Assembly (NCBI GenBank): GCA_040758355.1
Contig: JBFLWF010000012.1
Coordinates: 15,870 to 79,869, forward strand
Source: Nitrospirota bacterium
Lineage (GTDB): Bacteria; Nitrospirota; Thermodesulfovibrionia; Thermodesulfovibrionales; Dissulfurispiraceae
Direction: 5' to 3'
DNA: 64,000 nucleotides
A model generated the notes under the pieces. It was not told the DNA's origin, did no database searches, and worked only from the letters and a program-made list of their open reading frames with translations. Position 1 is the stretch's first letter; every line of letters starts with the position of its first letter. The position numbers and the translations under genes were made by a program. This document shows, in pieces, positions 1 to 63,168 of this stretch.

Positions 1-30
1 GTTGAATGTTATTCTCTTGAATTCCTTCAT
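1..30 (-). CDS. 5' fragment of a gene running off the window (MKEFKRITFN...), possibly DUF433 family
   Basis: ATG at 28-30 with GGAGG RBS at 37-41; RITFN resembles DUF433 N-termini; only 10 codons visible. Confidence 0.35.
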   Translation of the reverse strand, partial: MKEFKRITFN

Positions 31-24869: not shown

Positions 24870-24870
24870 C

Positions 24871-25677: not shown

Positions 25678-25749
25678 AATTTTATTTGTTTAGGTGTATC
25701 TTTGTCTTAAAGAATTAACATTTTTTCCAGAAAGGGGGTGAAAAAACAA

Positions 25750-26121
25750 ATGAAAAAGGCACTTCTATTGGCAATGGCAGTACTATTTCTCTTCTCTTTC
25801 GGATGTGCTACAAAAGACTATGTAAAACAGCAGATAGACCCGCTTGTTGACAGGATCAGCAAGCTTGAGGCAAGGGTTTCGGCTCTTGAATCAAAGGTTG
25901 GCGCCCTTGAAGGCAAGGTTGGCGCACTATCGTCTGATGTGTCCGCTGCTAAAAAGGATGCAGCAGAAGCCAAATCCCTTGCACAGGAGGCAATGAGGGT
26001 CGCAAAGGATTCTGCTGACAGGGCTGAGGCTGCTGCAAAGAGGGCAGAGGCTGCTGCACAGAGGGCAGAAGAGGCATTTGGCAAGGCTAAAAAGGCCTTT
26101 GAATTACAGCAGAAGAAGTAA
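25750..26121 (+). CDS. Lpp/OprI-like alanine-zipper lipoprotein ending in Lys
   Basis: Lipobox FSFGC, heptad coiled coil, Ala-rich, C-terminal QQKK. Confidence 0.8.
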   Translation: MKKALLLAMAVLFLFSFGCATKDYVKQQIDPLVDRISKLEARVSALESKVGALEGKVGALSSDVSAAKKDAAEAKSLAQEAMRVAKDSADRAEAAAKRAEAAAQRAEEAFGKAKKAFELQQKK

Positions 26122-27064: not shown

Positions 27065-27149
27065 AAATTGAATAATAACCAACAAGCGCAGTATAATTCA
27101 AGCGATTGACAAAATCTGACTTTATGTAGTTAAATATAAGTCGCTTTTC

Positions 27150-27225
27150 GGGCGGATAGCTCAGCTGGGAGAGCACAGCCCTTACAAGGCTGGGGTCACA
27201 GGTTCGATCCCTGTTCCGCCTACCA
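27150..27225 (+). tRNA. tRNA-Val(TAC)
   Basis: Cloverleaf; anticodon arm CAGCC-CTTACAA-GGCTG; GGTTCGATCC; CCA end. Confidence 0.97.
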
Positions 27226-27236
27226 TAAACCGCTTT

Positions 27237-27313
27237 GGGGCGGTAGTTCAGCTGGTTAGAACGCCGGCCTGTCACGCCGGAGGTCGCGGGTTCGAGCCCC
27301 GTCCGCCCCGCCA
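27237..27313 (+). tRNA. tRNA-Asp(GTC)
   Basis: Anticodon arm CCGGC-CTGTCAC-GCCGG; GGTTCGAGCC; CCA end. Confidence 0.97.
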
Positions 27314-29940: not shown

Positions 29941-32337
29941 CTATGCCTTTGTTACTTTGCATATCAGCGCTTTAAAATTTATCTGATCGGAAACAGGACA
30001 CCTCTTGTTCTTATCAACAATAAAGTTTAACGATTTCCACTGGGTAAACGGCTGTTTTTCGGAATATGTGTTCGGCACGAAAACAGTGTCTTTCCTGATA
30101 CCCTCATAAACCCATGCCTTTGCAAATACATACCCCTTCAGTCCCTCTACCTTTACCTTATCGCCGTTCTGAATTCCTATTTCTATCGCCTTTTCAGGAT
30201 GTATCATGCAGTACTGGTCGGGCGTCTGCTCGCAGAGATTCCAGAGCCAGTGGCTGCCGTCGCCAAAGTGTGCCGCGGATGGCCTGCCTGATGTAAGATA
30301 CATGTCAAAGCCCGACATCTCGGGCTTCTCGGGATATTTGATCTTTACCCGCCGCGCCCTCATGTTGCCTACAGCCACTATGCCTTTCATCAGAGAGGTA
30401 ATGCCCACCGACGAATCGTCATCAAGATATTCAAGATAAGGAAGACCGTCCTTCATCCCGATCTCAGGGTCAACATAAAATTCAGGCAGGGGACTCAATC
30501 CCTGAGCCTTATACATTTTTTCCAAATCCTCAGTCCATATCTCAATCTTTCCTGAGGGTCTCGGGAACTGGCCTTTCTTGCCGGGCACTCCGTGCTTCTC
30601 GGTATAAAGAGTGCCTATCTCTGGAGCGTCCGGAGTCGGAAGCGGTCCTCTCAACGCGCCATCCTTCTTAGCAAAAAATCTCTCGGGCGAAAAACCTGTC
30701 TTCTTAGCCATCGCCCTTTGTAAAACCACAGGGTCTTTGTATTCGTCCTTAAATATATCTCCCCACCCCATCTTCTTGCCGAGTTCGATAAATATCCATC
30801 TTTCGGGTTTTGCCTGATGCAGCGGCTGGATGACCTGAGGTACAAATACGTTTCTCCTCTCATCGGAAACAGGAGCAACCCCTCCTGATTCGGCCCATGG
30901 AGACACAGGAAGAATATAGTCGAAATAGAATGTCTCTATGCTCGGAAACATATTGTAGTACACGGAGACCTCAAGGTTATCCAGCGCCGTCATTACCCTT
31001 TCGATGTCTCCCCATTGTACGAGCGGATTGCAGCATGCCATGAATGCCTTTATGGGATAAGGCTTCCCTGTGATCATCGGCTCAACCCATGCGATAGGAG
31101 ACCTTCCGAGCCTCTGTTTTTTTGGTTTTACTTCCTTATCGGCAGGCACGGAAATGCTTCCCATTGGCGTTGCGCCTGTATTTCCGCAGCCGTATCCCAT
31201 TGAAGGCTTTCCGAAATGACCTGTTATGGCGGCAAGCATAAAGAACGCCCTGTGGGTCAGATGGCCGTTTGTGTGGTGGCTCAAGCCGGCGTTGCCCATG
31301 ATTATCGCCTTTTCAGTCTTTGCGTATTCCTCCGCAAGCTCTTTAATCGTCTTTGCAGAAATTCCCGTAATTTTCTCAGCCCATTCGGGTGTGTATTTTT
31401 TCTCGATAAGAAACGCCTTGAGTTTATCAAAGCCAAGCACCTTATTATTTATGAAGTCCTGATTTTGCAGGTTCTTCTCTATGATGTGATACATCATAGA
31501 AAGCGCCAACGCCATATCTGTCGAGGGCTTTATCGGGAGCCATACATCTGCCCTGCTTGCAGCCTCGGACATCCTCGGGTCGACCACAATAAATTTTGTC
31601 TTCCTTTTTATCCTTTCATCATTCGTTGCTCCGAACGCTACAGGTTTACATGCAGCCATATTACTGCCGACAAACATGTACCAGTCTGCGCCGCCGAAAT
31701 CTTCTCTCGTGTATGTCCACGGCGGGTTGTTATGTCCTAAAATGGAATTTGAAGCGGTCGTTCCCGCAAGATTACAAAAAGGGCCGGTTCCTTCGCGATG
31801 CGGAGTGCCGTAAAGTTTCTCGAACGTCCCTGTCAGCCCCGCTCTTGCCTGGGATTCGCTCCTACCTCCGGTCCACCACGCAAGCGCCTCGGGGCCGTAT
31901 TTCTCTTTAACCGCTTTAAGTTTATCTGCAATCTCAGTTAATGCCTGCTCCCAGCTTATCTCCTGATATGATTCCGGCTTGCCCCTCGGCCCTATGCGCT
32001 TTAAAGGAGCCTTCAGGCGGTATTTGTTATACAGCATGTTCACGCTGTTCTGTCCCTTCGGACAGAGCTTGCCGCCTGTTACAGGGTCGTCAGGATTGCC
32101 GTAAATATTAATAATCCTCCCTGCCTTTACATGCACCTTCATGCTGCATCCCGTCTGACACCATTGACAGCCTGCTGTCACCGCCCTGTCGGGCATAGGC
32201 GCTATACCGCTTTCGGCATATGGTTTATGGGTTTTAAAATTTTCCGTGCCTTTTACACTTAAAGGCATTCCCGCAACTGCCGCAGCGGCGCCTGCAACCT
32301 TTAGAAATGTCCTTCTTGAAAGCCTTAGCTTATCCAT
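29941..32337 (-). CDS. Tat-exported molybdopterin oxidoreductase catalytic subunit (DMSO reductase family; substrate unknown)
   Basis: SRRTFLK, CQWCQTGC..LCPKG, VDPR, IHPEKA; GGAGG RBS. Confidence 0.92.
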   Translation of the reverse strand: MDKLRLSRRTFLKVAGAAAAVAGMPLSVKGTENFKTHKPYAESGIAPMPDRAVTAGCQWCQTGCSMKVHVKAGRIINIYGNPDDPVTGGKLCPKGQNSVNMLYNKYRLKAPLKRIGPRGKPESYQEISWEQALTEIADKLKAVKEKYGPEALAWWTGGRSESQARAGLTGTFEKLYGTPHREGTGPFCNLAGTTASNSILGHNNPPWTYTREDFGGADWYMFVGSNMAACKPVAFGATNDERIKRKTKFIVVDPRMSEAASRADVWLPIKPSTDMALALSMMYHIIEKNLQNQDFINNKVLGFDKLKAFLIEKKYTPEWAEKITGISAKTIKELAEEYAKTEKAIIMGNAGLSHHTNGHLTHRAFFMLAAITGHFGKPSMGYGCGNTGATPMGSISVPADKEVKPKKQRLGRSPIAWVEPMITGKPYPIKAFMACCNPLVQWGDIERVMTALDNLEVSVYYNMFPSIETFYFDYILPVSPWAESGGVAPVSDERRNVFVPQVIQPLHQAKPERWIFIELGKKMGWGDIFKDEYKDPVVLQRAMAKKTGFSPERFFAKKDGALRGPLPTPDAPEIGTLYTEKHGVPGKKGQFPRPSGKIEIWTEDLEKMYKAQGLSPLPEFYVDPEIGMKDGLPYLEYLDDDSSVGITSLMKGIVAVGNMRARRVKIKYPEKPEMSGFDMYLTSGRPSAAHFGDGSHWLWNLCEQTPDQYCMIHPEKAIEIGIQNGDKVKVEGLKGYVFAKAWVYEGIRKDTVFVPNTYSEKQPFTQWKSLNFIVDKNKRCPVSDQINFKALICKVTKA

Positions 32338-32365
32338 ATCAAACCCTCCTTCTATCCGTATCAAA

Positions 32366-33141
32366 TTAATAAAGCCCGAACGACTTCGAGATAACAGATA
32401 GGTCTCCCGTGAGCTTTGCCTTCAGCGCATTAAGCTTGCCGAGTCTCTTCGTAAACATCTCCTTTACCTTTTCCCTGTGCCGTTTGTCGATGCTCTCTGT
32501 TATAAGCTCCCTTCTCTTTTCGGCCCTTTCCATGCTATTTATTTCAAGTAAACAACTCTCTATTTTTTTAAGCTCCTCCGACTCCAATGCAACACAGTAT
32601 TTAAAATTTTCAAAATAGGATGCCGTAACCTTCAATTCATGCCTGTCAATGTCCTTGAGCCTGCGAATATTTGCTTTCCTGTCTTTATTCACCACAACGC
32701 CCCTGTCAATGCACTCATAACCACAGTTGCGGTACATACTCAGACTGCCGTTCTCCATAATGAGCGACTCAGGGAAGAGACGGCAGTGAATAGGCCTGAT
32801 ATCATAAACCGAACACTTGCCGTCTTTGAGAAATCTGCATGGGAATATCAGCCCTACAGAAGGGATAAGGAGGCACGTGCCCGGTATCCTGTTCCATATC
32901 ACCTCGCAGTAGTCCTTAAAAAAATCCCCACCCCTCATCGAGAGATGCTTGCACAGCCTGATAATATCTCCCAGTGTCAGTTCAAGGGGATTGCCCTTGT
33001 CAGTGCAGCACCGAACACATCCGTCAATACATCGAAAGCCTCTGTTGTCCGGGGACAGTCCCGAATCAGAGCCTGCTCCGTTTAATACGGGGGCTTCGCC
33101 CGTAATTCTGGGACAGTCCCCTTTTCTGTCTTTAACACCCA
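32366..33141 (-). CDS. YkgJ/CxxCxxCC family protein (start uncertain)
   Basis: CIDGCVRCC, CRFL..KCSVY..RP..CRLFP. Confidence 0.8.
33052..33120. repeat. Two GGGACAGTCCC REP-like palindromes
   Basis: Copies at 33052-33062 and 33110-33120; also at 39134-39170. Confidence 0.6.
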
Positions 33142-34067
33142 CAGGCCTCTTCCACAGAGATGTTGAGCTGTGATGTTGCCTTCTGTCCGTTTTCATCTTC
33201 AACAGTTAAGACAACCGCATAAACGCCCTGTGTAAATGTATGCTGGGCCTCTTTACCTGTAGCGCTTTCCCCATCTCCGAAGTCCCATCTTATGGATTTG
33301 ATCCTGCCGCTTCCGCCTCCAATAATGGCCTTGAATTTAACTGTATAGGGTGCATCGCCTCTCCTGTTTTTTACGCCGCCGATCTTTACCTTAAGCGGTC
33401 CTCCAGAAGCCAGTTCTTCTTCAACAAGCAGACTGCCGCCAAGACGCTTTGAAGCCTTCATCAATGAGTCCCTTGTTTTGTCCTGCATCTGCGCTGGAGC
33501 AGCAATGCTTCCGCCTATCTTCTGGACTGCCTGCTGTCCGTCATCCACCCTCAACTTGTTTACTCCCATATCCACAACTACCCTTCCCAAAATGGACCAG
33601 ATGGTGAACTCTTTCTTTGCGTCATCATATTTCAGTGCAAATTCAGCGCCCTGAGTCATAATGGGAACATTGCCTGCACTGATCTCAAAGTGAGTAAACA
33701 GGTGTTCGGGAACCTGAGCCTTTGCAAATATGCGGCCCTTTTCCAGTGTAAGGAGCGTCTTTTCCATGTTCCTGTCGCTCTCAAAGATAACTCCCTTCAG
33801 GATAATGGATGTTTCAGGATAAATTTCTACAATGCCGCCGTTTGACCATGTAAGGACAACGGCAGAATTAGCGCCTGTGGCAATCTTTTCATCCCTCTGA
33901 ACAATGTCGCCCTCTTTCAACGGAATACCGTTTTTTGTTACCGTACCATCTACCCTTGTAGCCCTCACTACAGATGCATCCTCGGCATAGGCGCTAACAA
34001 CGCCGACAAGCAAGATGCAATAAAACAAAACACTTAACACCAACACATTTCTGAAAAGTCTGAACAC
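33132..34067 (-). CDS. Exported FecR-like + PKD domain protein ending in CGC
   Basis: Signal peptide; FecR-like N-domain; WDFGDG..HTF..G.Y.V.LTV PKD signature. Confidence 0.8.
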   Translation of the reverse strand: MFRLFRNVLVLSVLFYCILLVGVVSAYAEDASVVRATRVDGTVTKNGIPLKEGDIVQRDEKIATGANSAVVLTWSNGGIVEIYPETSIILKGVIFESDRNMEKTLLTLEKGRIFAKAQVPEHLFTHFEISAGNVPIMTQGAEFALKYDDAKKEFTIWSILGRVVVDMGVNKLRVDDGQQAVQKIGGSIAAPAQMQDKTRDSLMKASKRLGGSLLVEEELASGGPLKVKIGGVKNRRGDAPYTVKFKAIIGGGSGRIKSIRWDFGDGESATGKEAQHTFTQGVYAVVLTVEDENGQKATSQLNISVEEACGC

Positions 34068-34094
34068 TTTCTAATACCTCCTGATTTTTGGTTC

Positions 34095-34496
34095 CTAATT
34101 TCTTGTTCCTTTAGCTTCTATTTTTTTGGGTCCCTGTGCCACAGAGCAGAAGGATTTGCGTCAACCGGCCTCGACATCGATGGTTGTGCTCGCAGTGTAT
34201 ATCCTGCCGTCTCCATCCCAGACCTCCAGCACCACATTACATTTCCCGTATTCGTAATAATGCGGTGGAGGGGTCTTTTCAGAACTCTCTTCTCCGTCTC
34301 CAAAGTACCAGTGAAACTTCAAAGGTTCTTTCAGTTTTCTTATCTTTGGTTCGAGCAGCCACATGGTGCCGCTCTCCGATGTCGGGACAGCAATAATCTC
34401 TACCCTGCCAGCCTTCTGTTCTTCAGCAAAGACATTCCCCGAGATCACAATGACCGCACTGCATACGACAAAAATATGGAAGAGGATTTTAACCAT
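34095..34496 (-). CDS. Exported PKD protein, candidate selenoprotein (VEAG-U-RKSFC...); ends at 34161 if UGA is stop
   Basis: Signal peptide; WYFGDG PKD motif; frame stays open past UGA to TAG at 34095. Confidence 0.7.
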
Positions 34497-34499: not shown

Positions 34500-36272
34500 C
34501 TAAAATTCAAACTCGGCTCCAAGAACAACCTTTGAGGCAGGGTCGGCCTTTTGTCCATTCGCCTGCTGGTAAACTGCCGAAGGAACAAAATACCCAGCTT
34601 CTGTAAAACCCCTCAGACGTTTATAGATCGGGAAATTGAGATCGAGATCTATGCCCCATCCAATATCCCTTGTCTTTTCGGTTGTGAGAGAAGCCCCGCT
34701 GCTCCAGTCTATTCCGGGCACGGGACCCCTTCCTTTATAAACGATCTCTGTTGTCCAGTATCTTGCGAGGGCAATATTCGTTTGAAGGCTCTTAACAGGC
34801 TCGAACCCTGCAATTGCCCTGATAAATGTAACATTCGCGAGGTTGCTATCCCATAGATAATACCCAGCCCTCAAATCCTCGCTGAATATGTTTCCGAATT
34901 TCCTTCTGTCCTTGCATAGAAATAACCCTCTGAAATTTTTATAATCGCCGTTAACAGGATCGTCAACCTTGTTTCCCGATCCCCTCCCGAACTCCAGACC
35001 TGCCGAAAACTTCTTTAAAAAGCCCACATTGCCGAAATGATAATCGCCCCTCAGCAGAAAGGCATAGGCAGATAAATCCCTTGTATTGGTATACTGACCT
35101 GTAAGATAGATTAAGTCAGCCATGTATGAGATTCTTTCTCCTTTCCCTGACAGTGCGATGCCGAGCCAGAGAGGTTCAAAACTTCCGTCGCGCGGCGTAG
35201 TGTTTAAATTAAAATCCTTATCGAGGTTTAAATCAGGGTCGCCAAACTTACCCCTGTCAAATACCTTGAGGACATATGGCTCTATGTTCAAATCCCTCCT
35301 GGGCTTTATATTAAAGCTGATGAGAAAGCCATCCAGCTTGTTTGCAATGCCGAGGGCAGCGCTCCTGTCTCCGGCAGGCCCTGCTCCGAAGTTGTTGTAA
35401 TTCCTGAATCCTCCTGCAACAGCTATATATGTCAAATTCCCTGTGATCCTTCCCATAGGTGTCTGGCCAAAGGGATAAGAGATCTTGAATGCATCCACAG
35501 GACCTTCGAGCACTACACCATCATTTCCTGCCATGACATTTTGCCTGCCTGCCTTCGCAATAAAATCGCCCGTATACTGGACGTAGAGCTCCCTCACTAA
35601 TGCTGAGTTTACCGTAAGAAACTCTGACCATCTGTCGAGGGTGCCTTCGCTGTCTTCCTTCCAGTCAAACACAAAGTTCCCTTTGTCAAAAAGCACTACC
35701 CCTGTTATTGGGCCGTAGTCCGCCTCGATTTTCAACTGAAACCTCTGATCAAAATAGGTAGTGTTGTCGTATGTCCATGCCTGTCTCGGATTGTTGAGAT
35801 TGATATTATCCTTTACATTCAGCCGCAGTTTGTATTTCCCTGAAAATGCAAATTTCGTCTTCTCTTTTGCCTCCTCTTCTTCTTTTGCCGTCCTGGCATC
35901 TAATTTTCTTTTCCACGTCTCAAGTTCTGTAAGTCTTCTTCTTGCTTCTTCATCCCTCGCTTTCTGGATATCCGTTTCAACCACCGGCTCGCCCCATTCA
36001 TCTGCTGCTTCCTTTTTATCCTTTGCTTCGGCAACTGCAGGCTTTGAAGGAATAGCTGCCGGAGCAGGCTTTTTTTCCTGCAGGAGCCTATTCACCAGTG
36101 ACTCGAGGTCAGAGACGCGCTTCTCCAGTTTTTGAATATAGCCCTTTGTCTCATCATCAAGAGGGGAGGCTGCGTATGCCGATAAAGATGATGCTATCAG
36201 AGAAAAGACCATAAAGGTTGTTATTAAAATGTATCTGACAAAAATTATCGTTTTTTTCTTTTCAATGCTCAT
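34500..36272 (-). CDS. Outer-membrane beta-barrel with N-terminal coiled coil
   Basis: Signal peptide, coiled coil, amphipathic strands, C-terminal AEFEF. Confidence 0.75.
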   Translation of the reverse strand: MSIEKKKTIIFVRYILITTFMVFSLIASSLSAYAASPLDDETKGYIQKLEKRVSDLESLVNRLLQEKKPAPAAIPSKPAVAEAKDKKEAADEWGEPVVETDIQKARDEEARRRLTELETWKRKLDARTAKEEEEAKEKTKFAFSGKYKLRLNVKDNINLNNPRQAWTYDNTTYFDQRFQLKIEADYGPITGVVLFDKGNFVFDWKEDSEGTLDRWSEFLTVNSALVRELYVQYTGDFIAKAGRQNVMAGNDGVVLEGPVDAFKISYPFGQTPMGRITGNLTYIAVAGGFRNYNNFGAGPAGDRSAALGIANKLDGFLISFNIKPRRDLNIEPYVLKVFDRGKFGDPDLNLDKDFNLNTTPRDGSFEPLWLGIALSGKGERISYMADLIYLTGQYTNTRDLSAYAFLLRGDYHFGNVGFLKKFSAGLEFGRGSGNKVDDPVNGDYKNFRGLFLCKDRRKFGNIFSEDLRAGYYLWDSNLANVTFIRAIAGFEPVKSLQTNIALARYWTTEIVYKGRGPVPGIDWSSGASLTTEKTRDIGWGIDLDLNFPIYKRLRGFTEAGYFVPSAVYQQANGQKADPASKVVLGAEFEF

Positions 36273-37212
36273 GACGTTTTTCGCTTCCGACTCCATAGAA
36301 TATGGGGATTTCCTTAACCTTTCCATCACGCCCCATTACTTTATCCACCTTCCTCTCGCGGGTGTGGCACTCTATGCAGACGAGGCGTTTTAAAAGGGGT
36401 TTAAAGGTATAGGGATTTTCTGGATGTACAGCAGTAAAGAAGGGTATCCCGCCTTCATCTTTTCTCTGTACAAATAATTTCAACGGGCCATAAGGTTGTA
36501 TTCTGGATTCTCTTATTATCTTTGCCTTTTCAATGCACTCCTCCATACCCGTTTCACCGACAATTGCCTTTGAAAAACACTCCATTACAGCCTTTTCGTC
36601 AACAACAGCCTCTTTAAGTCCTTCCTTAGGCGCATATGCCTCATGACAGGTTGCACAGGTCATCTTTTTGAGTTCCTTAACTTTCACTACCCTGAAGGTC
36701 TGAGGAAATATATCGTTTATAATATTTCTATTCAGCCATTTGAGGTCTTCTTTGCTCCTCGTCTTGTTATACTCTGTCTCCGACTTTTTAGTCTCGCTGC
36801 CGAAAGCAACAATGCCCTTTAATTGGGAGACAAGATTTTCATCCATCAGGAGTCTGTTTATCTCATTAACAACGATGGTCTTTTCATCGCTGTTCAATAC
36901 TCCGGGCTTAAAACCACTTATGACCATTTTTGCTTCTGCACTTAATGGCAGAATCTTGAGTTTAGCCTGAAGATTCCTTAAAAAGTCAGGCCAATCCCTT
37001 ATTTCATCCATGGAAAAATCCGCAGTCCTCTGGCTCATGGCCTCAAGATGAATGGCATGGGGATGAGGATATTTCTTACCCTGTTTTGTTACAATGCCTC
37101 CATCCGTCCACTTTATGGCCTCTGACCATGCTGTAGCGGCAATCAACCCGAAAGCCATAATGCCGATTGCTGCAATTGATATTACAAGACGGTTTAAGCG
37201 ACTGTTTCGCAT
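36262..37212 (-). CDS. Periplasmic diheme c-type cytochrome
   Basis: Signal/TM segment; CATCH and CIECH. Confidence 0.75.
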   Translation of the reverse strand: MRNSRLNRLVISIAAIGIMAFGLIAATAWSEAIKWTDGGIVTKQGKKYPHPHAIHLEAMSQRTADFSMDEIRDWPDFLRNLQAKLKILPLSAEAKMVISGFKPGVLNSDEKTIVVNEINRLLMDENLVSQLKGIVAFGSETKKSETEYNKTRSKEDLKWLNRNIINDIFPQTFRVVKVKELKKMTCATCHEAYAPKEGLKEAVVDEKAVMECFSKAIVGETGMEECIEKAKIIRESRIQPYGPLKLFVQRKDEGGIPFFTAVHPENPYTFKPLLKRLVCIECHTRERKVDKVMGRDGKVKEIPIFYGVGSEKRHEH

Positions 37213-37910
37213 ATCTCCTCTCCTTCCTTACAGACCTTTGCATAGAGTTCTGAAACATATTCTTCTTCGCTCTTCATAAACTCTATTATGAAATTGGCAA
37301 CGGCCTTATAAAATCCGTATTCCGCCCTTTCGATGATCTTTTCACAGCATCGATACACCCACTTTAAAAGGTGCTCTTCCAAAAACATCTTCTGGAACTC
37401 GACACATTTCTGTAGCGATTCAATCCCGGTCTTTTCCCATGACTCCCTCTCTATCCCGCAAAGAAAGGCCATAAACTCCAATTCCATTCCAAGGTGATCC
37501 GGCATCTCGGTGCACTCTTTTAGAATATCCGCTCCCGCCTTTTCATAAAATTGGCCTACGCTTATGGTAATCCTGCCTCCGAGTTTCTTATCTTTGTCGA
37601 GATACACGGCCTCGTGCGGCAACAAATCCGACGGAAGAACAAACAAAGCGGTATGATCCGCCTCCAATTCTTCCTTAAGGTTCGGCATCTTCTCGGCCTG
37701 CCTTACGAATTCGAACAGTCCCGCGGGATAAGACTCTATACCTTCGCCGTCTTCGTAATTGTCCTGAAAGACCGACAATATGCTTCCGTCTCTTATCATC
37801 GCGATCAAAGAATCCGAAGGCGGCTTAAGACAGAGACCCGATAAAAACCTGTATGTCCTTTCCCTTTCTCCAGCTGTTATGGCTTCAAATTCGCTCACTT
37901 TAACCTCCAT
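37194..37910 (-). CDS. TorD/DmsD-family chaperone
   Basis: PHEAVY, PDHLGMELEFMAFL, EHLLKW. Confidence 0.9.
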   Translation of the reverse strand: MEVKVSEFEAITAGERERTYRFLSGLCLKPPSDSLIAMIRDGSILSVFQDNYEDGEGIESYPAGLFEFVRQAEKMPNLKEELEADHTALFVLPSDLLPHEAVYLDKDKKLGGRITISVGQFYEKAGADILKECTEMPDHLGMELEFMAFLCGIERESWEKTGIESLQKCVEFQKMFLEEHLLKWVYRCCEKIIERAEYGFYKAVANFIIEFMKSEEEYVSELYAKVCKEGEEICETVA

Positions 37911-37912: not shown

Positions 37913-39100
37913 CTATGTCGATGCTTTAATAAACCCGTTTTGAATAAACGCCATCTGTTTTTTATGCCTGCTCACACATAAAGGGCATATATCCCCGCCG
38001 ATATCCTGAGATTCGGTATCTCCGGCCGTTTGAACAAATTCGAACCTGCATATGGAGCAGGTCTTTCTTTCGCTTTCAAAAAGCGTGATCTCCGCGTTCT
38101 CCATCAGATAATTCAGCCTTGCCGTCTCTTTTATTTTTATAGCATTAGGCATGCAGGTCTCCACGCAGACCTTGCAGTTAACACACAATGCCGGTTTAAA
38201 GCTCAAATGAAATTTTCCGGCCTCCTGCCTTTGGGTTAAAGCACCGGCAGGACAGAGCGTAGCACAGACACCGCAGCCGGTGCATCCGGAAGATACCTCA
38301 AGCTCCGCAAGTATTGCGCCGGTTGACGGCACATGCGTTTCTTTGGAAGACGAAAACCCCTCAAGCGCCTGCATCAGGAGATTCCTTTTAAAATTTTCGG
38401 GTTTCTTAGAGATAGCTCCGATAAATGTTTCTTTCTGCTCTCCTTCGATTCCGACATCTGGAATGGATGTTACTGCCACCTCAGCCGCCTTTGCCCTGAG
38501 CGCGGAGAATAATTCCCTCCTCGAAACCGCTTTCTCCGGCATTTTCGATAAAGGCTGAAGCGATATGTTCTTTATAACAAGCCTGTCCTTTTCTATGCCC
38601 GCCGTCTCATAAATAATCGAAACGTTATTAATAACCCTGTCGATATTGGTGGAAGCCTTTGAATTCGGACACGCCGCGCATTCGGGGCGCGATATCTCTA
38701 TATTCAAAACGCCCGCCTTTATAGGCTCAAGAAGCGTAGCCTCGCTGAGACGTCCGAGGCACGGCACCATAAGGTCGGCGCTGTCGTCTCCACGCTGACA
38801 TGAAATACGGAATACTTTTGCTTTCTTAGACTTTTCTCTTATTTCAGCAACGATCTTTTCATCAGCCGTTTCCTTCATCCTGAAAACGCCGTTTGGACAC
38901 GCGGAAACGCATACTCCGCAATCTACGCAGCCTGCTTTTATCTCCGCTCCGTCCTCCGAAATGCCGACAGCGTCCGCAGGGCACGAATCGGCGCAGATCG
39001 AACAATCCGATTTCGGCGTCCTGAAACGCGAACATAAAGACGCTTCTATCAGGATATGATGATTATTGATAATTTTATCCGCTACTTCTGCAACTCCCAT
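37913..39100 (-). CDS. Multi-4Fe-4S ferredoxin-like protein
   Basis: Several CxxCxxCxxxCP motifs; start moved past REP-derived extension. Confidence 0.85.
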   Translation of the reverse strand: MGVAEVADKIINNHHILIEASLCSRFRTPKSDCSICADSCPADAVGISEDGAEIKAGCVDCGVCVSACPNGVFRMKETADEKIVAEIREKSKKAKVFRISCQRGDDSADLMVPCLGRLSEATLLEPIKAGVLNIEISRPECAACPNSKASTNIDRVINNVSIIYETAGIEKDRLVIKNISLQPLSKMPEKAVSRRELFSALRAKAAEVAVTSIPDVGIEGEQKETFIGAISKKPENFKRNLLMQALEGFSSSKETHVPSTGAILAELEVSSGCTGCGVCATLCPAGALTQRQEAGKFHLSFKPALCVNCKVCVETCMPNAIKIKETARLNYLMENAEITLFESERKTCSICRFEFVQTAGDTESQDIGGDICPLCVSRHKKQMAFIQNGFIKAST

Positions 39101-39133
39101 GCTTGCACCTCTCAAAATTAGTTTTCGGTTATC

Positions 39134-39170
39134 GGGGACAGTCCCTGTCTTAATAACAGGGACTGTCCCC
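39134..39170. repeat. REP-like doublet hairpin
   Basis: GGGGACAGTCCCTGT-N7-ACAGGGACTGTCCCC. Confidence 0.7.
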
Positions 39171-39188
39171 TTTGCCTTAAAACCCTTA

Positions 39189-39815
39189 CTACTTCGTATA
39201 CAGCGTCGACGGCTCCGTGCTTGTCTTCGCACCGATGAATCCCAGAGAAACCCTCTCTGCCCGTTTCTCCCTGATGAGTTTTGTAAGGGAGTCTATCTCG
39301 CCGAAGAACCTTGTCCTCGCAATACATGTATCAACGCAGGCAGGACGGAGTCCTTTCTCTAACCTATGCACGCAGAGCGTGCATTTTTCCATTACCTTTG
39401 CCTCGGCATTGAACTGCGGATGTCCGTAAGGGCACGCCCACGCGCAATACCTGCAGCCGATGCATTTGTCCTTGTTGATAAGAACTATCCCGTCCTCTTT
39501 CCTCTTTGTGATTGCCCCGACCGGGCAAGCCGCCATGCAGGCCGGCTTCCCTCAATGCATACAGGGCATCGGCACAAAGTAGACCCTTAAATCTGGCTTT
39601 TCCTTCTGATTTTTAAATTCTCCGACTTCGATCTCCATTACCCGGTTGTAATCCACGCCTACGGGAGTATTGTTCTCTCCCTTGCACGCCATGGTGCAGG
39701 CATGGCAACCGACGCAGTATTCGAGATCGACCCAGAGCGTATACTGCTTAGGACCCGGTTTTTTAAAACTGGCCTCTAAGACTTCATCCGGTACAAAAGT
39801 CCCTAATTCCGACAT
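39189..39815 (-). CDS. 4Fe-4S dicluster subunit with in-frame UGA (candidate Sec; otherwise nonsense pseudogene)
   Basis: Two track ORFs join in frame: PCMH-TGA-GKPACMAACP versus paralog PCMHCGKPACKQACP. Confidence 0.85.
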
Positions 39816-39828: not shown

Positions 39829-42825
39829 TTATAACCTTTCGACCCTTAGAGGCGTACCGAAACTCTGCGTACCACCTCCTATGGGGTCAACCAGCACCCT
39901 ATTTTTCAAAACAGGGTCGGCCATATAAAGCGGGTTTATATGGAAACCTGCGCCTACTCTTTCATCATGAGGCTGCTCTTTGCCGTTCATATGCCACTTG
40001 CCTTTCGGCGAGCCGGCTCCGAACCTTCCGTAAGACTGGCACACAGAGAACAACCCCGGCCTTATCCTGCTTGTAACCCTGATCTGGAATTTAAACCAGC
40101 CGTTGCCAAGATAGTTTGGATAAAACTGTTTTATGAGCTTGCGGAAATTTTTGTACATATCCGTCTCTATTTGTCCGCTGGAAGGAGACTTTGCCTTGAC
40201 CCAGTCGCCTGTCTTAACGCCCAGTCTCTCGGCATCCGCAGGGTTTATCTCCGCATAGTTCTGAGGCTTGATGGATGCGAGCCACAGGTTGTTCATTGTC
40301 CTCGACTGGGTATGGAAGGCTTCCTTATTCGTGTGAAGCTGCATCGGATATTCATTCCAGATCGCTGGATCAAGGGGCTGCTCTTTGCAGTCAACGATAG
40401 TCCTGTACATCGGCAGACCATCCATATACTCGCCAGTCATAGCGTTTTTATATGTGGAGACCTTTTCGAGGAAAGCAAAGAGTACGCGCACCTGCCTGCC
40501 TCCGGGGAATGATGTGTACTCGCCCGAGGAATAGTCTTTTGTGTATTGATGTTTTGGCGACGGGTTCTGGAATTTCCCGCCCAGCTTCACAAGACTGCTT
40601 TTCGGGTCCAATCCATCCTTAAAGTCTTTGTGCTTATAATATTCGTTCCAGAACTGCCATGAATTGTTGATATCCACGCCCGGTCCGCCTCCGTCTTTCC
40701 CGAATGCAGGAAGACCGCATTCTTTTGAGATCATTATGAGAATATCATCAGCCATTTTTGTGTCAGGTCTTATGGGCTTATAATCATGGGTCTTTGGATC
40801 GAAAGATCCTACTACAGGCTGTCTTAATGCCCATACCTGTGTTTTTACCGGCGGGTATGTCTTAAATCCTCCGAGTCTTTCGAGGTATTCGGTATCAGGA
40901 AGCACATAGTCGCAAAGCTGGGTCGTCTCTCCCATATATGCATCTATGGAGAATGTCAAAGGCATTGCCTTCAAATCCAAAAGCGCCTCGATAGTCTCCT
41001 GATTATAAGGCATTGTATAGGCAGGGTCGTTGTAGTAATTGAGATATGCCTTATTCTTGTAAGGATACCCCATTCTCACATTGGAGAAGAAGTTCGGAGT
41101 CACGCTTCTCGGAGCGCTATAACCGGAGTACCACGGCCTTGAAGCAGTCGGCTTCTTTCCCTGATATGCAGCCTTTGCCGTGTCGGCCCGGATGCCTGAA
41201 GGCTTCCGTTTTTCCTTAGCCTTTACATCGCCTTTATAAGCCGCATGCCCTGAGATAAAACCGCCTTTCCTGTCGATATTGTCAACGAGCATGTTTATGA
41301 TGCAGAGCGCCTGCCCGTTATACCAGCCGTTTGACTGCTGGACAGGGCCGCGGAACATCTCGATTGCAGGGCGTTTTGCGGATGTGAATTCCTTTGCGAT
41401 GTGGGCGATCGTTCCAGCCGGTATATCGCATACGGCATCGCACTCTGCGAGGGTTTTCTCCTGAGCCCTTTCTCTGAGCATCCTGAATACAGTCTTGTAC
41501 TCAACGCCGTTTAAGACATAGCTTGCATCGAGGTCTGCAAACCCGTCCGCATCCTGAAACATCTTAGGCTGTCCGCCGACAAGCACCACAAAGTCGCTCT
41601 GGCCGAGGCCTGCGTCTTTTCCTGTAAGGTACTTCCTCGGCTTGGTCGTGCTGACAAGGTATGTCATGTCCGTCCAGTTCCTGTAGCCCTTTTTCTTTGC
41701 GACCTTTTCATTTGGTATGGTAAGGTATTCCTTTTTATACCCGTTGTTCTCTATCATCCATCTGATCATACCCAACAGGAAATACGCGTCCGTTGTCGGC
41801 TTTATAGGAACCCATTCGCCAACGCCGTTATGCGTTGCCTTTGCAGCGGCATTCGTAAACCTCGGGTCAACCACGACATGCTTGAAATTCTTTGCATCCG
41901 GATTAAGCCTCTTTCCGAATTTCTGCAAATACCGGGCCCTCGTCTGCATGGGATAGTCTGCCTGAGTGACATTAGAGCCCATGCTTATCAAGTAATCGCA
42001 GTATTCATAATCGCAATAGCTCCCTATTTCGTAGGGAGGTAAATTCAAATTTGCCTCTACAACAGTGTAGAAGGTGCCGGCGCAACGGCTGCAATGGTTG
42101 AGCATATGCGGAACGCCGCAGGCGTCAACGACAAACCTCGGCGTCAGAGGCGACTGCTCATTCCTGCCATGCGCCCAGACAAACTGGTTCCTTTTCGGTC
42201 CCCATCCGCCTGGGGGAGCTTCGTCCATATAGGCCGAATCCTCAGGTCCTATGGGCTTATCGTTGCTCAGTATGGATTTCAATCCTTCAACATTACGGTT
42301 CTCTTCTCCGGGAACATTCTTGAAGAGATAACCGCCGTGGCATATCTCCTTAATAGCCTGATCCCACGAAATGGTCTTCCATTTACCTGATCCCCTCGGC
42401 CCAACTCTTTTAAGCGGATGCTGGAGTCTGAAGGGGCTGTAAAGGGCAAAGATGCCTGCCTGCCCTTTCGGACAGAGCGAACCTACGTCCTTTCCTGTAG
42501 GCCCTGCATCGAGGTCTGACTCCTCGACTATATCGCCCTTAGCAGTATAGTCGTAAGTGTTCGGATGGTAAGGATTGCCCGTAAGCCTCGCAAGCTCTCC
42601 GTTTACTACCTTTGCCTGAATGCCGCACCCTCCGTGGCACATAAGGCAGACGCTTCTTACTATCTTCATCTCTCCGTCAACCGGGTCCGGCTGTGAGCCG
42701 GACTTGCCTATCTGCTTTTTCCACTCTGCTGCCTCAACATCTTTGAAATTCGATGCTACCGCGGCAGCAGTAATAGTAGCTGCAGAAAGCTTTAGAAAAG
42801 ACCTTCTTTTCATCTCGGTATTCAT
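39829..42825 (-). CDS. Tat-exported molybdopterin oxidoreductase, TtrA/SrdA/ArrA-like clade
   Basis: KRRSFLK, CLMCHGGC, GNPYHP, LCPKG, HCSRC; ~1000 aa. Confidence 0.9.
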   Translation of the reverse strand: MNTEMKRRSFLKLSAATITAAAVASNFKDVEAAEWKKQIGKSGSQPDPVDGEMKIVRSVCLMCHGGCGIQAKVVNGELARLTGNPYHPNTYDYTAKGDIVEESDLDAGPTGKDVGSLCPKGQAGIFALYSPFRLQHPLKRVGPRGSGKWKTISWDQAIKEICHGGYLFKNVPGEENRNVEGLKSILSNDKPIGPEDSAYMDEAPPGGWGPKRNQFVWAHGRNEQSPLTPRFVVDACGVPHMLNHCSRCAGTFYTVVEANLNLPPYEIGSYCDYEYCDYLISMGSNVTQADYPMQTRARYLQKFGKRLNPDAKNFKHVVVDPRFTNAAAKATHNGVGEWVPIKPTTDAYFLLGMIRWMIENNGYKKEYLTIPNEKVAKKKGYRNWTDMTYLVSTTKPRKYLTGKDAGLGQSDFVVLVGGQPKMFQDADGFADLDASYVLNGVEYKTVFRMLRERAQEKTLAECDAVCDIPAGTIAHIAKEFTSAKRPAIEMFRGPVQQSNGWYNGQALCIINMLVDNIDRKGGFISGHAAYKGDVKAKEKRKPSGIRADTAKAAYQGKKPTASRPWYSGYSAPRSVTPNFFSNVRMGYPYKNKAYLNYYNDPAYTMPYNQETIEALLDLKAMPLTFSIDAYMGETTQLCDYVLPDTEYLERLGGFKTYPPVKTQVWALRQPVVGSFDPKTHDYKPIRPDTKMADDILIMISKECGLPAFGKDGGGPGVDINNSWQFWNEYYKHKDFKDGLDPKSSLVKLGGKFQNPSPKHQYTKDYSSGEYTSFPGGRQVRVLFAFLEKVSTYKNAMTGEYMDGLPMYRTIVDCKEQPLDPAIWNEYPMQLHTNKEAFHTQSRTMNNLWLASIKPQNYAEINPADAERLGVKTGDWVKAKSPSSGQIETDMYKNFRKLIKQFYPNYLGNGWFKFQIRVTSRIRPGLFSVCQSYGRFGAGSPKGKWHMNGKEQPHDERVGAGFHINPLYMADPVLKNRVLVDPIGGGTQSFGTPLRVERL

Positions 42826-42861: not shown

Positions 42862-44082
42862 TCAAGCCTTCTTCCTGCTCTCAAACCTTAGTTCACCTGT
42901 ATAAACCGGGATGGCAAACTTCAGCAACAGTGTATAAAACAAAGCTCCAAGCGCCCATATCCCTATAGTAATAAAGCCTTCTGCCATCGTAGGCCAGTAT
43001 TCATATATCTCCCCGAGGGTATCGGGAATAAATCCGGGGATAATCAGACCCAGACCCTTTTCTATGTATACCCCAAGGATTATTAATACAGCGCCTATGT
43101 TTAAGGTTTTAAAATTCTCGCGGGTCTTCGGTATCAGGAAGATAATAAAGGCTATGACATTAAATATAAGGGCTGTCCACATCCACGGCACCAATAGTTT
43201 TTTCCCATGCAGTCCGAAATATAGATATTCCAATGGAGCCTTGTGAATGCTGTTAGAATAAAACTCCTTAAATACCTCTGCGCCGAACAGGAAAAGATTA
43301 ATGCCCATGGCATACGCTACCAATTCAGCAATTTTAAAGATTGCCCTATTTTCTATCTCCACTCTTGTGAGCTTTCTGATGACCTGAAACAGAATCAACA
43401 TAATGGCCGGGCCTGAACAAAAGGCAGATGCAAGAAACCTCGGCGCCAGTATGGATGCGTTCCAGAAAGGTCTGGATGGGAATCCATTATATAGAAATGC
43501 CGTTACTGTATGTATGCTCACCGCCCATGGGATAGAAAGCAATATCAATGGCCAGATTAACGATAGCTTGTATTCCTTCCCGATGGAGAGCCTGTACAGG
43601 GCGTAAAGGACAAGAGCAAGGTTTATAAAGAGATACCCGTTCAAGACTATTACATCCCATGCGAGGAGGGAGGATGGGAAATTCATCATTCCCACAACAG
43701 GCAGGAGATGCCAAACCTTTTGCGGCTGCCCTAAATCAACCATTATGAAGAGTATGCACATGGTAATTGCTGTTATAGCAACCATTTCGCCAAAGAGCAC
43801 AATCTCCTTAATGGGTTTAAAATTATATAAATATGCTGGAACTACCAGAAGGACCGCTGCCGCAGCTACACCAACAAGAAAGGTGAAATTTGCTATGTAA
43901 AACCCCCACGATACCTGATCCCTCATAGCGGTTGTGATCAAACCCTTGTCGATCTGCTGGATATACGCGCTAATTCCAAAAACAATCAGTATACAAAGAA
44001 AAGCAACCCATGCATAATACTTTTTACCTCCCCTCGTTATCTGTAGAAGCGCCTTAAAAAAGTTTTTTATCATGTTATACAT
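42862..44082 (-). CDS. NrfD/DsrP-family membrane quinol oxidase subunit
   Basis: WGFYIANFTFLVG, DLG.P, HTVTAFL, RFLASAF. Confidence 0.9.
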   Translation of the reverse strand: MYNMIKNFFKALLQITRGGKKYYAWVAFLCILIVFGISAYIQQIDKGLITTAMRDQVSWGFYIANFTFLVGVAAAAVLLVVPAYLYNFKPIKEIVLFGEMVAITAITMCILFIMVDLGQPQKVWHLLPVVGMMNFPSSLLAWDVIVLNGYLFINLALVLYALYRLSIGKEYKLSLIWPLILLSIPWAVSIHTVTAFLYNGFPSRPFWNASILAPRFLASAFCSGPAIMLILFQVIRKLTRVEIENRAIFKIAELVAYAMGINLFLFGAEVFKEFYSNSIHKAPLEYLYFGLHGKKLLVPWMWTALIFNVIAFIIFLIPKTRENFKTLNIGAVLIILGVYIEKGLGLIIPGFIPDTLGEIYEYWPTMAEGFITIGIWALGALFYTLLLKFAIPVYTGELRFESRKKA

Positions 44083-44097
44083 TTACCAACCTCCCTA

Positions 44098-45030
44098 TTA
44101 AACTTGCCAGCCAGTAAAGAAGTAATAAAATTTTGGCTCAGTATTTATGTCCTCTTTCAACCTGAAGACCCTCTTATTTTCAATAAGGTACCTTATCTCA
44201 CTTTTAGGGTCTAAAAGATTGCCGAACTTCCTTGCTCCTACCGGACATACCTCAACGCATGCAGGATATTTGCCTGCCCTTGTCCTCTGTATGCAGAAGG
44301 TGCATTTTTCCACAACACCTTTATAGCGCGGACGATTCCCAAGATAATGGGTCTCGGGATTTAATTCATTTTGCGGGATATTGGGTTTTGCCCAGTTGAA
44401 GCGCCTTGCGCCATAAGGGCATGCAGCCATACAGTATCTGCAGCCGATGCACCAGTTATAATCGACAACTATAATGCCGTCGGGCTCTTTCCATGTTGCC
44501 TGTGTAGGGCACGCCTTTACGCATGGTGGGTTCTCGCACTGCTGACACTGTACAGGCATATAAAAGAAGCCCTTCTCGGGGACCTCTTTTGGGTTATAGT
44601 ATTTCTCGGAATTTTCGAGATCAATCCATTTATCGCCCTTCTTGAATCGCAGTACAGAAATCCAGTGGACCTGAGGAGTTCGTGATTGGTTGTTCTCTGC
44701 TACACATGCATACACGCAGCGCCTGCAGCCGATGCATCTGGAAAGATCAAGGCCATATCCAAACTTTACTCCGGGCCTTGGCTTTGTTGCACTGATATGG
44801 ATATCCTTCTTCCATTCAAGGGATGCCTCCTTTTCCAGTTTCTCGATTACCCTTTTGATCTCCTCATCCGTCATCTCCTTGAAGTGCTTCTGGGAAAAAG
44901 CATCCCAGTTGAACGCATCTGCAGTTTGCAGCGGAAGGGCTGATGCAGCAAGACCTGCTGCTGCACCCTTCAAGAATGTCCTTCTATCAAGCCTGAGTCC
45001 CATCGGGTTGTTCCTTATTTTCTTTGACAT
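44098..45030 (-). CDS. Tat-exported 4Fe-4S subunit (DsrO/NrfC-like)
   Basis: DRRTFLK; four Cys cluster motifs. Confidence 0.9.
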   Translation of the reverse strand: MSKKIRNNPMGLRLDRRTFLKGAAAGLAASALPLQTADAFNWDAFSQKHFKEMTDEEIKRVIEKLEKEASLEWKKDIHISATKPRPGVKFGYGLDLSRCIGCRRCVYACVAENNQSRTPQVHWISVLRFKKGDKWIDLENSEKYYNPKEVPEKGFFYMPVQCQQCENPPCVKACPTQATWKEPDGIIVVDYNWCIGCRYCMAACPYGARRFNWAKPNIPQNELNPETHYLGNRPRYKGVVEKCTFCIQRTRAGKYPACVEVCPVGARKFGNLLDPKSEIRYLIENKRVFRLKEDINTEPKFYYFFTGWQV

Positions 45031-45043
45031 GGCTGTTTAACCT

Positions 45044-45550
45044 CTACTTTAATTTAATGTCCGCTGGTCTCGTTGGCGGCTGTTTTGGTTCAAACGGTTT
45101 AAACCTCGGCTGATGCGGGTCATGGCAGGTTACGCAGATACGATAAACCTTTTCTCCGTCCCACATTCCTGTGGTCTTGCCGTGAATACCTGCCTTCCAG
45201 TCCCTGATCACAGTTCCATGACACTGGCCGCAGAGGATGTATGATTTCTCATAATCTATCAACTGTCCGTTGGCTAATTTCAATTTGTCCCCCTCATGAC
45301 AGTTGAAACACCACTGCTGATCCTCTGCATGTTTGAGCACTATGTTGGAGTGATTCCCCACCAGTTTTCTCTTTGCTTTGTTAACAGGCAAGTACCTGTG
45401 GCACTTGGAACAGGGATAATTCTCAGGAGGCATGGGCTTGGTTATAATCAGCTTTGGAACATCTTCTTCTGCATTCCCTGAATTAAAGAAGAATGCCGAA
45501 ACAAAAAACAATACCGAGAAAATCACTGCTAACTTGCTTCTTCTCTTCAT
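45044..45550 (-). CDS. Tetraheme c-type cytochrome
   Basis: CSKCH, CFNCH, CGQCH, CVTCH; signal peptide. Confidence 0.88.
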   Translation of the reverse strand: MKRRSKLAVIFSVLFFVSAFFFNSGNAEEDVPKLIITKPMPPENYPCSKCHRYLPVNKAKRKLVGNHSNIVLKHAEDQQWCFNCHEGDKLKLANGQLIDYEKSYILCGQCHGTVIRDWKAGIHGKTTGMWDGEKVYRICVTCHDPHQPRFKPFEPKQPPTRPADIKLK

Positions 45551-45586
45551 CACGGACTCCGTTTTAAAAGATTTTTTAGAATGAAT

Positions 45587-50639: not shown

Positions 50640-50706
50640 TGCCCTTGCCTCTGAAAATCTTCGATCCTTGAGGCTTTCTTTTATCAATTTTTGTGCCACT
50701 AAATTT

Positions 50707-56187: not shown

Positions 56188-56204
56188 ATTCTGATTCCTC
56201 CTAT

Positions 56205-58024: not shown

Positions 58025-58066
58025 ATTCCCTTGAACTTTTTATTCAGGGACACGCCCTGATTTTAA

Positions 58067-58474: not shown

Positions 58475-58475
58475 A

Positions 58476-60785: not shown

Positions 60786-60800
60786 GAAACCCTCCTTGAG

Positions 60801-62074: not shown

Positions 62075-62091
62075 TTTATCCCCCTTTAAGT

Positions 62092-62165: not shown

Positions 62166-62168
62166 TCA

Positions 62169-62823: not shown

Positions 62824-63168
62824 CTATACACCGAAATTTAAAAAAATGGGATTTGCCTTGATTACATTAAAGAGCCCTTTCAAAGAGCTCATCTCCCCGC
62901 CTTCGACAGAATCCTCTTCCGCAAGACCGCGGAGCTGCATACAGCCTGTTCATATATCAACCTTGAGCCCCCTGCCCACGAGGTCTTCCAGTGCGGACAA
63001 TGCCCGCGGAACCTGCCCTTTGACAATTGAGAAAACACCGTCTCCAGACGCAACAAGCCTCACCTTTTGTCCCTTTTTAAGGGCAGCATCTGCGAGCTTG
63101 AATATGGTGTGGGTGTTTTCAAAACTGTACGGCGTTGTTGAAAGAAACATCACTATCTCCCTTTCCAT
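62824..63168 (-). CDS. DsrE/TusD-like selenoprotein candidate (KVDI-U-TGC-MQLRG)
   Basis: Read-through of UGA 62950-62952 restores a 114-aa DsrE ending 10 nt before the next ATG; GGTC-loop hairpin. Confidence 0.9.

Follow-up and report, generated by a model that had tools for sequence, protein, structure and literature searches.

Two exported PKD-domain proteins with conserved thiol or selenol tails as candidate sulfur or selenium carriers beside a porin and a TtrA-clade molybdenum enzyme

What might two exported proteins, each with a PKD domain and a reactive C-terminal tail, be doing beside a porin and a respiratory molybdenum (Mo) enzyme? The question arises from 64,000 nucleotides (nt) of the Nitrospirota contig JBFLWF010000012.1, and "the window" hereafter means this full stretch; loci in other genomes are labelled L001 onward, protein homologues carry P-numbers, and the window genes of the cassette described below, with the features inside them, all lie on the reverse (-) strand. 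As the original prediction had noticed, a FecR-PKD protein and a smaller PKD protein are encoded between two Mo enzymes and adjoin a porin, which is of the alginate-export type and stands immediately before them. Sequence comparison shows that both PKD proteins have, just past the last PKD strand, a flexible tail with a conserved pair of thiols or selenols. We propose, with a probability of roughly 45%, that the two could serve as periplasmic accessory carriers in a covalent sulfane-sulfur/selenium relay from the pore to the Mo site. C-terminal thiol-arm carriers and selenoprotein operons are already known as kinds; the PKD cassette itself is real, conserved and apparently undescribed.

The FecR-PKD protein (33132..34067; 311 amino acids, aa) ends ISVEEACGC-TAA, as first read, with the codons of Cys309 and Cys311 at 33135-33143. 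It combines a FecR-like beta domain (Pfam FecR at residues 61-155, PF04773 above cut-off), a PKD domain (PKD_4 at 234-304) and a C-terminal CxC arm; PKD_4 scored 53.7 and 29.4 bits in the two PKD proteins against a cut-off of 27, fold comparison likewise gave PKD, and an ESM Atlas search gave generic PKD clusters. Its N-terminus is signal-peptide-like (..SAYA-EDAS), with a hydrophobic stretch that starts inside the first 10 residues and runs up to an AxA site conserved across the aligned homologues, and the hydrophobic stretch and AxA-type site of both PKD proteins suggest, by eye, cleavable signal peptides. The AlphaFold model of FecR-PKD (predicted local distance difference test, pLDDT, 89) places the last strand at 296-306, and in the models of both proteins the tail is a low-confidence coil after the last PKD strand. 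Among the best 120 of the 241 homologues found, 118 keep CxC at the C-terminal end (76 CGC, 18 CAC, 11 CSC, 9 CNC, 3 CDC and 1 CTC), so the terminal Cys whose conservation was to be checked is kept; the other two are P0011, ending AHFH, and a frameshifted fragment. CxC also ends 58 of the 59 FecR-PKD genes with a readable end in 61 genome loci, the exception being L057 (Armatimonadetes; 9497-10510), which has no porin either, and L047 carries two FecR-PKD copies (3574-4557). Control multi-PKD proteins end in CxC in 0/148 cases and have Cys among the last six residues in 7/148; they came from a search in which a profile of the FecR-PKD alignment was run against cluster representatives, which multi-PKD giants dominated and which had two family members in its best 150. 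Since TAA, TAG and TGA all follow the CxC, this tail is the true end of the protein, and acidic residues precede it.

The small PKD protein (34095..34496) is predicted to be a selenoprotein of 133 aa on read-through, the in-frame TGA at 34161..34163 encoding selenocysteine (Sec) 112. Its first part (34496-34164(-), 111 aa, PKD_4) reads IDVEAG-TGA, and the frame past the TGA remains open for 21 further codons, RKSFCSVAQGPKKIEAKGTRN, to a TAG at 34095-34097, both as anticipated. The terminal G-U tail once proposed gives way to G-U112-R-K-S-F-C117, since a conserved Cys follows the TGA, and the conserved motif is G-U-x4-C with a short charged tail. The gene occurs in 33 loci besides the window, always directly upstream of the FecR-PKD gene, that is, in 33 of the 55 loci with at least 700 nt upstream of FecR-PKD. 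In the aligned column of the 34 genes, TGA is found in 17, Cys in 14, His tails in 2 and Ile in 1 (L017, in which the second Cys is retained). The TGA type stands after a Gly and belongs to Nitrospirota and Desulfobacterota-type loci and the Cys type mostly to Beta/Gammaproteobacteria, as in AASPG-U-GGF of L003 versus ASAPG-C-GGI of L029. The pattern past the TGA is U-x4-C in 12 genes, U-x3-C in 4 and C-G-U in L021, which puts a Cys at +4 or +5 in 16/17. The TGA is thus conserved opposite Cys, and the stretch that follows, which the original prediction had singled out for checking, retains a Cys. In L019 (9887-10294), a Cys-less PKD-domain duplicate replaces the small PKD.

The hairpin CTCTGT-GGC-ACAGGG read behind the UGA is present at 34146-34132, with a stem that begins 14 nt and a loop that begins 20 nt after the UGA. 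Taken alone, this hairpin, which resembles a selenocysteine insertion sequence (SECIS), shows no excess stability over shuffles (z +0.53, -0.51 and -0.98), so that it is persuasive solely via its conservation. Twelve of the 17 UGA genes were aligned without gaps, the five with other spacing being excluded; in them, a 4-bp core stem (+16..19/+25..28) has 91.7% of its cells paired and 14 two-sided changes, and loop G+21 (34140 in the window) is invariant in 12/12; none of 500 shuffles reached as high, a count that is not a probability because these sequences themselves guided the choice of structure and the UGA genes belong to a single clade. The bacterial SECIS (bSECIS) model asks for a loop 16-37 nt past the UGA and a G in the first two loop positions (PMC13188914, in its section on the model). 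It was passed in full by 11/17 UGA genes, the window gene solely in a suboptimal fold, compared with 1/16 Cys/His-type stops, 12/40 true TGA stops and 76/340 random stretches.

A profile search of protein records alone brought 78 small PKDs, of which 72 have G-C tails (50 of them H-G-C), 2 end in HEH and 4 end at Gly, the last fitting truncation at a UGA. Their tails contain GCG in 68/78 and GCGG in 22/78, with His at -2 of the tail Cys in 50/78, and the loop between strands A and B, which by PKD topology should sit near the tail, reads LCT in 45/78 and xHT in 11/78. Met or His often stands ahead of the small-PKD tail Cys, tails such as HGC, MGC, HEH and HFH occur across the families, and nearly every version offers paired soft ligands, be it CxC, U-x3/4-C, or a loop Cys/His together with the tail Cys.

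Two further positions in the operon alternate between TGA and Cys. The 4Fe-4S B subunit (39189..39815) is two open reading frames (ORFs) under table 11, and read-through of the in-frame TGA at 39552-39554 (PCMH-U-GKPAC) gives a DmsB-type protein of 208 aa in which the TGA sits at a cluster-ligand Cys; TGA occupies this position in 11/34 readable loci, and Sec as an iron–sulfur (Fe-S) ligand has precedent in the CxxU of HdrA, as listed in PMC13188914. A stable hairpin lies behind the B-subunit TGA. The A subunit, a molybdopterin enzyme, carries the motif H-[C/U]-[S/D/A]-R-C, its second position being TGA in 5 of the 43 readable loci and Cys in the other 38; the five TGAs (L001:2329, L002:2247, L007:2805, L016:2765 and L059:2495) are followed by a near-identical hairpin. 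L001, L002 and L059 have TGA in the small PKD, A subunit and B subunit alike. Sequencing error was rejected as the source of these TGAs, the same codon recurring in 17, 11 and 5 genomes. Elsewhere in the window, a DsrE-like gene (62824..63168, reverse strand) reads U-T-G-C across an in-frame TGA (62950-62952) and has a hairpin whose loop, GUCU, is at +23, which argues indirectly that this genome decodes UGA as Sec, DsrE-like proteins being a catalogued selenoprotein type (PMC13188914, catalogue entries). Rfam and ARAGORN found tRNA-Val and tRNA-Asp alone and no tRNA-Sec in the 64-kb window, within which Sec machinery genes were not seen either. Variant tRNAs read UGA as Cys in some Deltaproteobacteria, and UGA may likewise be decoded as Cys here. 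Judged on the alignments, the small PKD is very probably a selenoprotein, and, irrespective of mechanism, we are highly confident in three Sec/Cys families, namely the PKD tail, the TtrA-clade active site and the DmsB-type cluster ligand.

Which enzyme, then, do the PKD proteins accompany? The conserved unit comprises the A and B subunits, a polyferredoxin (37913..39232, its real start probably ~40 codons within the listed ORF), a TorD/DmsD-type chaperone (37194..37910), an exported c-type cytochrome (36262..37212; CxxCH twice in the window, three times in other loci), the porin (34500..36329), optionally the small PKD, and FecR-PKD, and its range extends from Thermodesulfovibrionia to Sulfuritalea and to cultured Sedimenticola (L028, which is Sedimenticola selenatireducens DSM 17993, and L035). 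The TtrA-clade A subunit (39829..42825), exported by the twin-arginine route, is found in 44/44 loci with 6.5 kb upstream, and the porin in 51/53. The expected linkage to the second Mo enzyme, then placed at 29941-32337 (29941..32364 here, likewise on the reverse strand) and PhsA-like by its scores, did not hold up: it was rejected as core partner, being an optional add-on in 10/46 loci that have 4 kb or more downstream, and its place can be taken by a type II Mo enzyme (12/46) or a second TtrA-like one (3/46). The idea of a covalent carrier for periplasmic Mo enzymes survives as the best-supported reading, with the TtrA-clade enzyme as the partner. A quinol-side module of an NrfD/DsrP-like membrane anchor, a DsrO-like Fe-S protein and a multiheme cytochrome (42862..45553, reverse strand) occurs mainly in Nitrospirota/Desulfobacterota loci.

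The best NCBIfam match of the A subunit is TtrA, at 345.6 bits and thus below the curated cut-off of 1750 (NF011567). Its motif H244-C245-S-R-C248 (region 42082-42093; Cys245 codon 42091-42093) includes the presumed Mo ligand Cys248, a call that rests on alignment of the H-x3-C with the HTDIC (TtrA-like) and GPFC motifs of paralogues, because PDB alignments did not show the Mo-ligand region, and on the ArrA/TtrA motifs. The extra Cys/Sec245, three residues ahead of the presumed ligand, is invariant in 43/43 readable cassette enzymes, and we take it, by the ArrA motif HSSIC, to line the substrate pocket. Enzymes of this clade act on tetrathionate, selenate and arsenate, as set out in part of PMC10100899.

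The porin, of the Alginate_exp family, has a single invariant Cys, Cys472 (codon 34914-34916), flanked by Arg and Lys in the basic motif L-C-K-D-R-R-K-F-G and conserved in 47/49 porins, the misses being one N-gap and one truncation; its helical N-terminal periplasmic segment is also conserved, with the invariant pattern W-x11-RD-x2-ARRR-x4-E. By analogy with AlgE/OprD architecture we assume that Cys472 would lie in the pore-constricting loop, and a PDB sequence search returned no solved porin relative. Co-folding of porin and FecR-PKD scored 0.46 (best control 0.00), with at least 68% of contacts common to runs and a partner pLDDT of at least 82, a mark reached by 116/157 solved complexes and 2/215 mismatches; scores of 0.60 or less include 18/157 of the former and both mismatches, so the co-fold lends weak support to a predicted contact.

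In the proposed relay, an anionic thiophilic substrate (polysulfide/sulfane sulfur or polythionate, possibly a selenium species) would enter via the basic, Cys-bearing pore, and the FecR-like domain would dock the carrier on the periplasmic extension of the pore. The CxC or U-x3/4-C arm could then load the chalcogen covalently, as a per- or trisulfide or a selenosulfide, and pass it to Cys/Sec245 beside the Mo-ligating Cys248, where quinol electrons arriving via the B subunit would cleave it at the Mo site. The mode would resemble that of SoxY or Wolinella Sud, having converged on a C-terminal arm borne by an Ig-like (immunoglobulin-like) scaffold, although here the arm is a dithiol. We favour this relay because a nucleophile is conserved at pore, arms and active site, and because of the substrates of the clade, the MccSep and Wolinella precedents and the nearby sulfur genes.

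The SoxY-like arm that had been suggested stands as a likeness: SoxY too is an exported Ig-like protein with a Gly-flanked C-terminal Cys arm, linked to periplasmic sulfur-type enzymes, and many tails read GCG or GCGG, the SoxY motif being GGCGG (PMC6067878, motif description). As homology it does not stand, the fold likeness being generic and the soft ligands two. The SoxY family gave no match, and Pfam scans returned PKD/FecR alone (both proteins at E 0.001; the small PKD and three homologues at E 1). The best fold match of the small PKD was 4l9d_A (Z 11.2, root-mean-square deviation, rmsd, 1.9, 80 aligned); 2ox5_Z, from the SoxYZ entry, is level with many fibronectin type III/Ig domains (Z 8.0, rmsd 2.7, 78 aligned), and SoxY was not among the best 50 matches of a wide fold search, which excludes nothing. 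SoxY has a single carrier Cys, whereas the window tails EEACGC and AG-U-RKSFC hold two thiols or Sec plus Cys, and the genes that go with the PKD proteins encode a TtrA-clade Mo enzyme and a porin. No Sox family appeared among the window proteins scanned or the annotated conserved clusters, some small ORFs and singletons standing outside these scans.

A comparable case is Sud, which delivers to the polysulfide reductase PsrABC and in this way serves a Mo enzyme, like the carriers proposed here. It is a Cys-dependent periplasmic polysulfide carrier of Wolinella (PMC6378623, in part); Sud, in contrast, is a one-Cys rhodanese, and the cassette has PKD scaffolds, Sec and a dedicated porin. In MccSep/ExtKL of Geobacter, as the relevant parts of PMC13510729 describe, periplasmic S-S cleavage likewise uses a Sec beside a metal-ligating Cys, which cleaves polysulfide, and MccSep occurs in Desulfobacterota and Thermodesulfovibrionia. 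MccSep, unlike the A subunit, is a multiheme and not a Mo enzyme, PKD carriers do not figure in those parts of the account, and passage of polysulfide across the outer membrane is left open there.

Several findings weigh against the relay. His replaces Cys in FecR-PKD P0011 (AHFH end), which represents a cluster of 33 sequences, and the small PKDs L047, L052, P0167 and P0174 end in EHQH or EHEH; such swaps suit the binding of metal better than the carrying of a persulfide, which His cannot hold. The small PKD is missing from 22/55 loci, L057 has lost the CxC and L017 has Ile at the U position. A nearby second thiol could discharge a persulfide instead of holding it, and the acidic residues ahead of the CxC would suit the binding of a cation no less than docking into a basic funnel. 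With 346 bits against the TtrA cut-off of 1750, substrate assignment of the A subunit lacks support, and the sulfur-trafficking genes of the window lie 11-18 kb upstream of the cassette, outside the conserved unit. The His-for-Cys swaps, the His/Cys of the A-B loop and the Met/His before the tail Cys keep metal(loid) and redox roles in play.

The strongest of the competing explanations, itself rather unlikely, is that the tails are soft-metal(loid) sites and the proteins periplasmic metal chaperones or sinks. In a delivery form, Cu, for example, would be brought to a second site at Cys/Sec245 beside the Mo, making a heterometallic enzyme of the dimethyl sulfoxide (DMSO)-reductase family; in a trap form, an As(III), Sb(III) or Se product would be caught and exchanged with the porin Cys. 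The interchange of Cys, His and Met in the tail and the A-B loop and the acidic residues ahead of the CxC would suit it, and Ig-like scaffolds and terminal arms of this kind are known from metal handling, Cox11 being an Ig-like Cu chaperone with CxC, CCS having a C-terminal CxC arm and UreE a C-terminal HxH. The His-only tails are, on the other hand, rare (1/120 FecR-PKD and 2/34 small-PKD loci, of one clade) and may be decay, the porin Cys among Arg/Lys suits anions, and the G-C/U-G-G contexts suit a flexible covalent arm. No Cu, As or Hg transport or resistance family was found among the annotated conserved neighbour clusters, an annotation that left singletons mostly outside. The enzyme clade does include arsenate and selenate reductases (PMC10100899, in part), and SaoC, an exported (seleno)protein ending in Cys-Cys-COOH, has been proposed in one section of its preprint to meet heavy metals (bioRxiv 2022.07.06.499078). 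Were this explanation true, the cassette would point to either a heterometallic member of the DMSO-reductase family or a trap for the products of As/Sb/Se respiration.

Distinctly unlikely, in our view, is thiol-redox maintenance by small periplasmic reductases, in which the tails would keep the porin Cys and Cys/Sec245 reduced or strip excess S/Se, outside the main substrate flux. Paired thiols in nearly all versions do resemble attacking and resolving pairs, and DsbD has an Ig-like redox hub in its N-terminal domain; the His-tail variants are, however, incapable of thiol exchange, and the cassette conserves no electron donor of its own (DsbD/CcdA), with DsbD-like genes turning up in 4/62 loci. 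Such paired motifs occur in most predicted selenoproteins, by the survey part of PMC13188914.

A reading that takes the TGA for an ordinary stop, and the two proteins for structural or FecR-like surface-signalling accessories with Cys in a stabilising disulfide, is very improbable: database entries do end the small PKD at Gly, the window hairpin alone is weak (6/17 UGA genes fail bSECIS while random stretches can pass), the UGA genes are one clade and hence not independent, and Sec machinery genes were not seen in the 64 kb, but TGA stands in the Cys-aligned column in 17/17 at 35-52% identity to the window protein as against 3/16 at neighbouring FecR-PKD stops in the same loci, a downstream Cys at two spacings goes with a covarying stem, two more Cys-aligned TGAs lie in the operon and a DsrE-like UxxC in the window, and FecR-PKD is without a cytoplasmic anti-sigma part, with no extracytoplasmic function (ECF) sigma factor among the conserved neighbours.

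Returning to the relay, a bolder and doubtful extension is that the whole cassette could work as a covalent bucket brigade for extracellular S/Se, from the pore Cys over the PKD arms to Cys/Sec245, with up to three unrecognised selenoproteins per operon (L001, L002, L059), one of them a DmsB-type subunit whose [4Fe-4S] cluster has Sec among its ligands. If true, it would give a concrete route for polysulfide or Se(0)-derived species across the outer membrane to a respiratory Mo enzyme, operating in groundwater Nitrospirota, Desulfobacterota and Rhodocyclales. The passage of S/Se through outer membrane and periplasm to a respiratory enzyme is a stated open question (PMC13510729, in part), and because the cassette is compact and conserved, with a nucleophile at each station, that question can now be put to the test in a cultured host and on soluble proteins of small size.

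Other relatives of single components differ in their setting. SaoC (NF040734), to which the PKD proteins gave no match, is likewise exported, with a C-terminal double Cys/Sec and a multi-selenoprotein operon beside transporters, but its context is a clostridial ATP-binding cassette (ABC) transporter and its tail CC, not CxC or U-x3/4-C (bioRxiv 2022.07.06.499078, as far as the preprint's SaoC passages go). The A subunit shares with the clade of TtrA, SrdA and alternative arsenate reductases its best NCBIfam match and H-x3-C ligand motif; unlike them, it has the invariant extra Cys/Sec245, TtrC is absent or replaced by an NrfD/DsrP-like anchor, and cytochrome, porin and PKD genes are attached to the cassette. 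FecR/PupR-type domains bind periplasmic extensions of outer-membrane barrels; FecR-PKD resembles the FecR/PupR anti-sigma periplasmic domain in its PF04773 match and in Foldseek matches that include 4m0h and 6ovk, and differs in having no cytoplasmic anti-sigma domain and a fusion to PKD-CxC, and no TonB-dependent receptor or ECF sigma was found among the conserved neighbour clusters. The Dissulfuribacter ttr-plus-OprOP-porin cluster, compared by its description (PMC13490349, in part), has another gene order and porin type.

All three Sec/Cys families are cut off at the UGA in database entries. The 119-family selenoprotein table of PMC13188914 holds no PKD, TtrA-like or DmsB-like entry, NCBIfam no family for four small PKDs at E 1, and no PKD entry was present in the BSepDB text and its one supplement, the deep-Sep main text (by term searches) or the accessible portion of the Haft-Gwadz preprint. 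The literature covered gave no account of the cassette; some of these families could appear in Haft and Tolstoy 2025, covered via a review table alone, in Deng et al. 2026, in supplements on bioRxiv or in papers under subscription.

Around the cassette, a sulfane-sulfur trafficking cluster at 60887-63850 (-) contains an SQR-like flavoprotein, DsrH/TusB-like and DsrF/TusC-like genes and two DsrE-like genes, together with a small helix-turn-helix regulator with a C-terminal CCP motif. Next to it, 55399-60803 (-) encodes an MMPL/RND protein, a YeeE/YedE sulfur transporter, a LolA-like protein and a pair of small helical proteins that resemble each other, one of which ends GC and the other GIG then TGA; modules of MMPL, LolA-like protein and barrel also lie downstream of the cassette in L029, L039, L055 and L059. 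At 49257-53066 (-), a phosphonate-binding-type periplasmic protein is joined by a histidine kinase and a response regulator, and the same trio stands divergent, upstream of the cassette, in L031, L033-L043, L045, L046 and L055; this set may be an oxyanion-sensing layout controlling the cassette.

On the other side, the operon ends beside a tRNA-Val/tRNA-Asp pair, which shares 23197-27313 with a Zn-type ABC transporter, an Lpp-like lipoprotein and an L,D-transpeptidase-like neighbour. In Rhodocyclales-type loci (L031, L033, L034, L036, L037, L039-L042, L045, L049, L050), a tetraheme c554-like cytochrome lies downstream of FecR-PKD, often with NapC/NirT, MoaA and a type II DMSO-reductase-family enzyme as well; that of L034 scores above the TIGR03479 cut-off, and the type II group includes selenate and chlorate reductases. 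L053, a Bifidobacteriaceae-titled record with a porin and Rhodocyclales-like genes, is probably a mis-binned contig.

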